DNA of 64,000 bases, from the NCBI RefSeq assembly GCF_016026235.1, contig NZ_CP065613.1. One strand, 5' to 3'. The DNA is from Escherichia coli (GTDB lineage Bacteria; Pseudomonadota; Gammaproteobacteria; Enterobacterales; Enterobacteriaceae). Positions 8,810 to 10,119 of this stretch are shown in pieces (positions within the stretch are counted from its first letter, which is position 1; each line of letters opens with the position of its first letter). The translations under genes and the position numbers were made by a program. The notes beneath the pieces were generated by a model that ran no database searches, had not been told where the DNA came from, and was given only the letters and a program-made list of their open reading frames with translations.

Positions 8810-8852
8810 GTAAAATTAGCTATGAAGTGGTCAACAAAAACTGGCCACCGAG

Positions 8853-9671
8853 TTAGAGTTTTTTCCAGTATCGATTTTCCGATTCGTTTGGTGGTAACCC
8901 ACCATTATATTCGTGCGGTCTTAGTGCGCTGTAATATCCAACGATATAGTCCGTTATTGCGTGAGCTGCATCGCTGAAGCTTACATAGCCCGTCGCCGGC
9001 ACCCATTCGTTCTTCAGACTCCTGAAGAAGCGCTCCATTGGGCTGTTATCCCAGCAGTTTCCACGCCGACTCATACTCTGCCTGATCCGGTATCTCCACA
9101 GTAACTGCCGGAACTGCCTGCTCGTATAATGACTGCCTTGATCGCTGTGGAACATCACCCCGACGGGCTTACCACGGGTTTCCCATGCCATTTCCAGTGC
9201 TTTCATGGTAAGCCTGCTGTCCGGCGAGAACGACATGGCCCAGCCCACTGGTTTTCTTGCGAACAGGTCGAGAACAACGGCGAGGTACGCCCAGCGCTTA
9301 CCCGTCCAGATATAGGTCACATCACCGCACCACACCTGATTTGGCTCGGTCACGGCGAACTGCCGTTCAAGGTAGTTAGGGATAGCAACATGTTCATGAC
9401 CACCACGTTTATACCGGTAAGTCGGCTGCTGACAGCTGACCAGCCCCAGCTCTTTCATGAGTCTGCCAGCAAGCCAGCGCCCCATCTGGTAGCCTCTCTG
9501 GGTTGCCATTGTGGCGATGCTTCTTGCTCCGGCAGAGCCGTGGCTGATGCCATGCAGTTCAAGTACCTGGCTGCGTAATACAGCCCGTCTGCCGTCTGGC
9601 TTTTCAGGACGGTTTTTCCAGTATTTGTAGCTGCTGCGATGGACCCCGAACACATGGCAGAGAGTGGCCAC
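8853..9671 (-). CDS. IS911 transposase OrfB (catalytic domain; expressed as OrfAB via -1 frameshift)
   Basis: IS3-family integrase-core motifs in the 272-aa ORF; slippery heptamer A AAA AAG at 9743-9749 on minus strand. Confidence 0.8.
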
Positions 9672-9697
9672 AGGATAACGCGCCCTGAGTTTCCCGA

Positions 9698-10000
9698 TTA
9701 TCGAGAACTGTTCAGGGAGTCTGACATCAAGAGCGCGGTAGCCTTTTTTAATATTTCATTTTCCATTTCAATACGTTGTAGCTTTTTCCTGAGCTCACGG
9801 ATTTCAATTTGTTCCGGGGTAATGGGGGAGGCTTTTGGTGTTTTTCCCTGCCGCTCATCACGTAATTGTTTCACCCATCGCGTCATTGTGGAAAGGCCGA
9901 CATCCATAGCGCTGGCTGCATCTGCCACGGTGTAATTCTGGTCAACGACCAGTTGAGCGGATTCGCGTTTAAACTCTGCGCTGAAATTTCTTTTTTTCAT
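9698..10000 (-). CDS. IS911 transposase OrfA (HTH)
   Basis: [21 protein letters not shown]...[25 protein letters not shown] matches recalled IS911 OrfA; AGGTG Shine-Dalgarno. Confidence 0.8.
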
Positions 10001-10119
10001 TATGGCACCTGTGTTGTTCTGAGGTGAGCATATCACCTCTGTTCAGGTGGCCAAATTCAGTAAACCACTTCACTATCAGGCTTCAATTACCGCTGGTATT
10101 CGCATCAAAGGAGAGGAGC

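Follow-up and report, generated by a model that had tools for sequence, protein, structure and literature searches.

The window, a 64,000-nucleotide stretch of Escherichia coli DNA, consists of a lambdoid prophage followed, from ~40.3 kb, by a chromosomal segment with micC and nifJ-ydbH-feaB-tynA-paaZ, which we take to be the Rac locus from the K-12 gene order. The plus-strand order in the prophage is YdaT/CII-like, YdaU (DUF1376, primosomal), YdaV (DnaC-like), DUF977, an insertion sequence (IS), a gene for a 118-aa protein, HNH, DUF551 and NinB; a cI-like repressor gene lies further left (Table 1). Because plus-strand genes flank both of its sides, the IS lies inside a single co-directional gene string. 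It is antisense to these early rightward genes, and its left inverted repeat (IRL) abuts the downstream ones. Several RNA genes accompany this arrangement. The flanking segment (40300-64000) includes the MicC sRNA gene; its best match among complete E. coli genomes, in EIEC-like strains, reaches 98.8% identity, and the host therefore probably belongs to a Shigella/EIEC lineage outside that collection. In the prophage, the nin-like region holds a sok antitoxin RNA; at the equivalent position, related prophages encode a member of the Hok/Gef family. C4 antisense RNA occurs together with isrK Hfq-binding RNA twice, in opposite orientations ~11 kb apart: one set lies to the left of the immunity region, and the other, which includes a c4-a1b1 target motif, just upstream of an open reading frame (ORF) at 14935-15624. 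Four tRNA genes also belong to the prophage.

The IS occupies a 57-nt spacer, with the target CTA 10 nt past the DUF977 stop codon and 44 nt ahead of the next ATG, and breaks no coding sequence. An earlier note on this DNA had likewise placed it in a prophage intergenic region, parting the gene that ends at 8809 from the genes downstream, and this placement is correct. The ATG at 10120 is preceded by AAGGAGAGGAG, with a strong AAGGAG upstream, and the same start was chosen by PGAP in an empty-site genome. Phage vB_EcoS-640R1 is annotated with the downstream gene beginning at a GTG right after the DUF977 stop (L004, 2280-2282), and with that start the same target site would fall within coding sequence. 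The window reads GTA, not GTG, at 8810-8812, and therefore only the ATG at 10120 can serve as the start.

Read directly, the element runs from TGAAGTGG (8823-8830) to CCACTTCA (10065-10072), and the 1250-bp element with TGAAGTGG termini that had been described earlier is present. Its terminal arms (8823-8849 and 10046-10072; 27 nt) are 78% complementary, and the 36-bp ends match at 25 of 36 positions. The length (~1.2-1.55 kb in the IS3 family), the imperfect repeats, the 5'-TG start and the CA-3' finish are those of IS3-family elements, as is the CTA duplication (3-5 bp in the family). The TTT at IRL positions 9-11 also occurs in other ISEc52-labelled copies. No further copy of the element was found in the 64-kb window.

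Table 1. Features of the insertion sequence, its prophage surroundings and the flanking chromosome (positions in the window; IRR and IRL, right and left terminal inverted repeats)
Feature	Position	Strand	Basis or remark
C4 antisense RNA and isrK Hfq-binding RNA, first set	3645-3833	-	
cI-like repressor, left of the IS	5230-5649	-	
DUF977 / Ren-like / YdaW-LygF-type gene, upstream of the IS	8387-8809	+	Pfam DUF977, E = 6.5e-34; PHROG 142
Target-site duplication, left copy, CTA	8820-8822	.	Empty sites with one CTA
Complete IS3-family insertion sequence, ISEc52 type (IS911-like)	8823-10072	-	1250 bp; direct reading
IRR, 36 bp	8823-8858	-	Identical to the published 36-nt IS911 IRR oligonucleotide (PMC2909936)
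Outward -35 TTGACC within IRR	8829-8834	faces left	-35 in IRR described in PMC9330008
orfB, 299 aa from AUU, DDE catalytic domain	8853-9752	-	Pfam rve (PF00665), E = 1e-31
Downstream frameshift stimulator, predicted three-way-junction fold	9672-9742	-	-24.7 kcal/mol, z = -3.1
orfA, 100 aa; HTH regulator and N-terminal part of transposase	9698-10000	-	Pfam HTH_Tnp_1, E = 6e-14
A-AAA-AAG heptamer, -1 programmed ribosomal frameshifting	9743-9749	-	Plus strand CTTTTTT
AUU codon of the orfB frame	9750-9752	-	Adjoins the 5' side of the heptamer; 299 aa when translated from here
SD-like frameshift/AUU stimulator site	9761-9764	-	GGAA here; GGAG in published IS911 (PMC8136817 Table 1)
IRL	10037-10072	-	Positions 9-11 TTT; CAC in IS911-labelled copies
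Target-site duplication, right copy, CTA	10073-10075	.	Direct reading
118-aa zinc-ribbon-like gene, function unknown, downstream of the IS	10120-10476	+	PHROG 1621
sok antitoxin RNA	12467-12641	+	Rfam, 118 bits
C4 antisense RNA and isrK Hfq-binding RNA, second set	14814-15015	+	
Four prophage tRNA genes: Met(CAT), Arg(TCT), Thr(TGT), Gly(TCC)	15833-16143	+	
MicC sRNA	46464-46584	+	

The coding content likewise follows the IS3-family plan as far as it can be read from the DNA: orfA in phase 0 and orfB in phase -1 overlap and would be joined at a slippery heptamer. OrfA is a 100-aa protein with an HTH plus a leucine-zipper region, and its sequence is found as an exact match on at least 1000 contigs. 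The A-AAA-AAG heptamer is in the X-XXY-YYZ phase of orfA, which is correct for a -1 shift, and such a shift is predicted to produce an uninterrupted OrfAB of 382 aa. Both orfA and the heptamer lie exactly where the earlier note had put them. The orfB that it gave at 8853-9671 follows a real frame yet is only the GTG-started part, as the frame opens at 9755 and includes the AUU codon listed in Table 1. The orfB product matched the NCBIfam model NF033516 ('IS3 family transposase') at 317 bits (cutoff 160). D227, D287, E323 and K330 (OrfAB numbering) make up the DD(35)E-K signature, and the DDE residues are invariant across the aligned OrfAB proteins. The plus strand of the IS holds no plausible gene. 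The sizes given for IS911 (OrfA 100 aa, OrfB 299 aa, OrfAB 382 aa; PMC2909936) are the same as here.

The 72 nt 3' of the heptamer are predicted to form a basal stem bearing two hairpins, in agreement with the three-way junction described for IS911 (PMC5009743), and the published IS911 stimulator sequence gave the same predicted architecture. The stem of the window element is predicted to be slightly more stable than that of IS911 (-24.7 versus -21.9 kcal/mol). Upstream, the SD-like site, whose stimulatory role is described in PMC4066793, reads GGAA for GGAG, a change that could lower frameshifting or AUU initiation.

Identical CTA triplets at the two ends would arise by chance alone with a probability of 1/64. 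What proves the duplication is not the flank match itself but the isogenic empty sites, which have CTA only once. We removed the IS and one CTA to obtain a 1-kb empty-site query, which aligned without interruption in dozens of genomes, among them E. coli FDAARGOS_943 (97.1%), and also across the site in phage vB_EcoS-640R1. The aligned empty junctions read AAATTAG-CTA-TCAGGC, and at least 120 IMG/VR contigs contain the empty site as an exact 31-mer. The strongest evidence came from eight NCBI assemblies that encode the exact DUF977 protein of the window; across 5.15 kb around the site, their prophage shares 99.3-99.4% identity with that of the window. In all eight the site reads ...GGCGGTACTGTGAGTAAAATTAGCTATCAGGCTTC... 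and is uninterrupted. Three of them are Shigella flexneri 3a chromosomes (PMC9455713), in which the uninterrupted site reads ...GTGAGTAAAATTAG-CTA-TCAGGC.... The search for an empty site in related prophages, which had been proposed as a check, was thus successful, and it bears out both the simple transposition event and the reading of the flanking CTA direct repeat as a real 3-bp target duplication. Neither copy of the CTA is mutated. A 4-bp duplication was ruled out, the flanks reading GCTA and CTAT. Elsewhere, a 100%-identical copy of the element (L002) splits a recombinase gene with a 3-bp duplication of AGG. Another 100%-identical copy (L007) was set aside as evidence on duplication length, because its flanks, AGT and TAC, do not match, probably after a later rearrangement. 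Judged from these sequences, it is very likely that the window copy is an ISEc52 element that inserted at a CTA of the prophage intergenic spacer and duplicated it.

The eight related assemblies also differ from the window in the ydaU-like gene, which two other elements break in at least seven of the eight, the eighth showing only one aligned piece. The stretch concerned in L129-L136 (locus positions 1-2492) corresponds to about 6430-6885 in the window, where the gene is intact (399 aa). We take the two elements to be IS600 and IS2 from their ORF sizes, from an IS600 label in a related E. coli prophage and, for IS2, from its end sequence, not from a database match. They belong to the same family as the window element and represent the same kind of event on the same prophage backbone, although they inserted elsewhere, in the ydaU-like gene, and have no megablast similarity to it. 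As this gene is broken by other elements in S. flexneri 3a and intact in the window, different IS elements have accumulated in separate lineages of one prophage.

A left-junction query did not find the filled junction in any of the 5,426 complete E. coli genomes, and exact-junction and exact-flank scans did not find it in species-representative genomes. A probable cause of the null result there is the merging of Shigella into E. coli by GTDB, which would leave the set with no Shigella genome. The filled junction was found in one IMG/VR contig, L008.

The earlier note had called the element IS911. To name it, we compared it by megablast with the 5,426 complete E. coli genomes, of which 4,885 contain the element or relatives of it. 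Full-length copies with 100.0% identity over 1250 bp are spread over chromosomes and plasmids at many sites unrelated to one another; single records have as many as 16-19 matching places (counting any length or identity), and the best match is at least 99% identical in 943 records. The best 25 full-length matches are all 100% identical and all annotated by NCBI as 'IS3-like element ISEc52 family transposase', whereas those annotated 'IS3-like element IS911 family transposase' are no more than 94.0-94.2% identical. An IS911-labelled copy differed at 73 of 1250 alignment columns, with the differences clustered in orfA (126-312) and at element positions 1071-1181. Under the ISfinder isoform convention, an isoform shares at least 95% nucleotide identity with the reference element. 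The OrfAB protein shares 98% identity with a Klebsiella protein labelled ISEc52 and 95-96% with Shigella and E. coli proteins labelled IS911 (13-19 amino-acid differences). The IS911-labelled proteins have 389 aa because of an A5 run, not A6, near the 3' end; the A6 run found here gives the 382-aa OrfAB. In a full-text literature search we did not find a published canonical IS911 IRL. The sequence that we presume to be canonical, TGAAGTGGCACACTG, agrees with the IS911-labelled copies. As the first IS911-labelled comparator (L001) was not a clean reference, having A5G in place of A6G and one more homopolymer deletion, we added a second comparator (L005) and published sequences.

The published IS911 fragments gave a mixed signal, with 3 differences in 98 nt and none in 50 nt. 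The 98-nt frameshift cassette (PMC8136817 Table 1) is not matched in full: heptamer and fold are kept, while GGAA replaces GGAG in the SD-like site and the other two differences lie in the stimulator stem. At all three the published sequence carries the alleles of the IS911-labelled copies. At the right end, the 36-nt IRR together with primer O5 (PMC2909936), 50 nt in all, is identical to the window, and it is the IS911-labelled copies that differ from the published IS911 at 2 positions. The identical right end (IRR plus the next 14 nt), an architecture and protein sizes like those of IS911, and an A6 run yielding the 382-aa OrfAB reported for IS911 rather than the 389 aa of IS911-labelled proteins would fit true IS911, as an isoform of the element from Shigella dysenteriae, and not ISEc52. 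We consider this unlikely, given that identical DNA is labelled ISEc52 in all listed records, that identity to IS911-labelled copies stays at 94.0-94.2% with most differences in orfA and 1071-1181, that the cassette differences match IS911-labelled alleles in three of three cases, and that IRL positions 9-11 differ. ISEc52, a close sister of IS911, is the best available name on the basis of NCBI labels and published IS911 fragments. What stands of the earlier identification is a complete IS3-family IS of IS911 type; the name itself is not the best one, given 100% identity to ISEc52-labelled copies.

Compared with ISEc52-labelled copies in E. coli and Klebsiella genomes (NCBI PGAP labels), no DNA-level difference was detected. 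The NCBI reference protein, however, appears to end differently, with the coding sequence drawn to element position 1242 and flagged 'frameshifted'. Compared with IS911 of S. dysenteriae, the window copy is alike in its 1250 bp, 36-bp inverted repeats, TG/CA tips, 3-bp duplication, OrfA of 100 aa, OrfB of 299 aa from AUU, OrfAB of 382 aa, heptamer, three-way junction and IRR. It is unlike in its 94.2% identity to labelled copies, the GGAA SD-like site, two stem changes and the TTT versus CAC in IRL. Some of the ISEc52-specific changes fall on signals, namely TTT for CAC (10061-10064) in the predicted -10 of the junction promoter and GGAA at 9761-9764. The IS911 remnants of E. coli K-12 (insN/insO) are of the same lineage, 97.5% identical and also labelled ISEc52 family by PGAP; they are truncated or interrupted (63% coverage), whereas the window copy is complete. 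An IS30 interruption of the K-12 IS911 copy is noted in PMC9333248. Overall, the distinction between ISEc52 and IS911 is one of nomenclature between sister elements, and the mechanism is unchanged.

The single contig with a filled junction holds a second version of the insertion. In L008, the same IS lies at the same site (4751-5999), and the flanks are near-identical, with 1 indel in ~10.4 kb. Within this IS, a contiguous patch at element positions 1071-1209 (window 8859-9002) carries all 11 IS911-type alleles and is bounded on both sides by ISEc52-type alleles, and the OrfAB of L008 has 389 aa. The patch could tentatively be read as the trace of a short gene conversion between IS911 and ISEc52 copies resident in one cell, although we do not think this probable; otherwise it would be an assembly chimera or collapsed-repeat artefact. 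If conversion did occur, sister elements would swap parts in vivo, among them the C-terminus of OrfAB (382 versus 389 aa), and the GGAA and the junction -10 TTTACT of ISEc52 might be tuned, exchangeable modules.

IS911 is a model for copy-out/paste-in transposition and -1 frameshifting (PMC1636345, PMC2909936, PMC9330008), and by analogy the window element would move in the same way. OrfAB, a 382-aa DDE transposase made by -1 frameshifting at A-AAA-AAG, would bind the inverted repeats, synapse the TG...CA ends, cut one 3' end and join it 3 nt outside the other end to give a figure-eight. Replication would turn this into a circle with a 3-bp-spaced IRR-IRL junction that acts as a strong transient promoter. 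In our model of the junction, this promoter consists of TTGACC, a 17-nt spacer and TTTACT preceded by TG. The circle ends would then be cut and inserted into a 3-bp staggered target, here the CTA of the 57-nt spacer, leaving the CTA duplicated.

The window copy has a complete set of cis and trans parts, and both the duplication and the empty site are observed. By analogy with IS911, it is probably still mobile. Immobility despite structural completeness, as in a relic, might be read from the GGAA in place of the SD-like GGAG and from the flagging of identical copies by NCBI as frameshifted pseudogenes. We regard this as very improbable. Identical sequence at so many chromosomal and plasmid sites requires recent transposition, and the window copy has kept its ends, ORFs, heptamer, AUU codon, stem structure and DDE residues as well as an unmutated target duplication. 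The PGAP flag concerns the identical copies L002 and L007, whose sequence encodes the 382-aa OrfAB via the programmed frameshift. The flag probably stems from annotation against a reference protein with an A5-type C-terminus.

The earlier note had also suggested that the element may carry outward promoter activity. As a mobile promoter, the insertion would drive the downstream accessory genes from 10120 onwards, and IS3-family elements can indeed make hybrid promoters. In IS911 the outward signal is a -35 in IRR, which meets its partner -10, in IRL, only once the element has become a circle (PMC9330008). In the window, however, the end abutting the downstream genes is IRL, not IRR, and the TTGACC of IRR points left, towards the 3' end of the gene upstream. 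At 16-18 nt from it, the hexamers are TACTCA, ACTCAC and CTCACA, none of which resembles TATAAT. A promoter scan of 8300-10600 on both strands returned no sigma-70-like site, against 2.5 expected by chance. The suggestion of promoter activity towards the downstream genes is therefore unsupported, and we give it almost no credence.

A different effect on the same genes would be polarity, in which 1.25 kb of untranslated antisense IS uncouples the nin-Q-late region from the early rightward promoter and so damps induction. The IS lies after the replication/Ren-like genes and before the nin-Q-late region in one co-directional string, and its plus strand has no plausible gene; both points are consistent with this idea. 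The two terminator-like hairpins on that strand, on the other hand, are weak and at chance level, lambdoid antitermination could read through, and the downstream genes may have promoters of their own. Polarity as the main effect of the insertion is thus possible, but in our view less likely than not.

The main corrections to the earlier description are the name, ISEc52 instead of IS911, and the unsupported promoter suggestion. For annotation of the family, the NCBI 'frameshifted pseudogene' flag on identical copies should not be taken as inactivation. The element is known and its insertion routine, a textbook event. Both belong to well-understood biology and are useful only as a lineage marker: with 0 occurrences in 5,426 complete E. 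coli genomes and one viral contig that shares it, the insertion junction is lineage-specific, and it shows where a polar break may lie in the early operon of the prophage at what we take to be the Rac locus.
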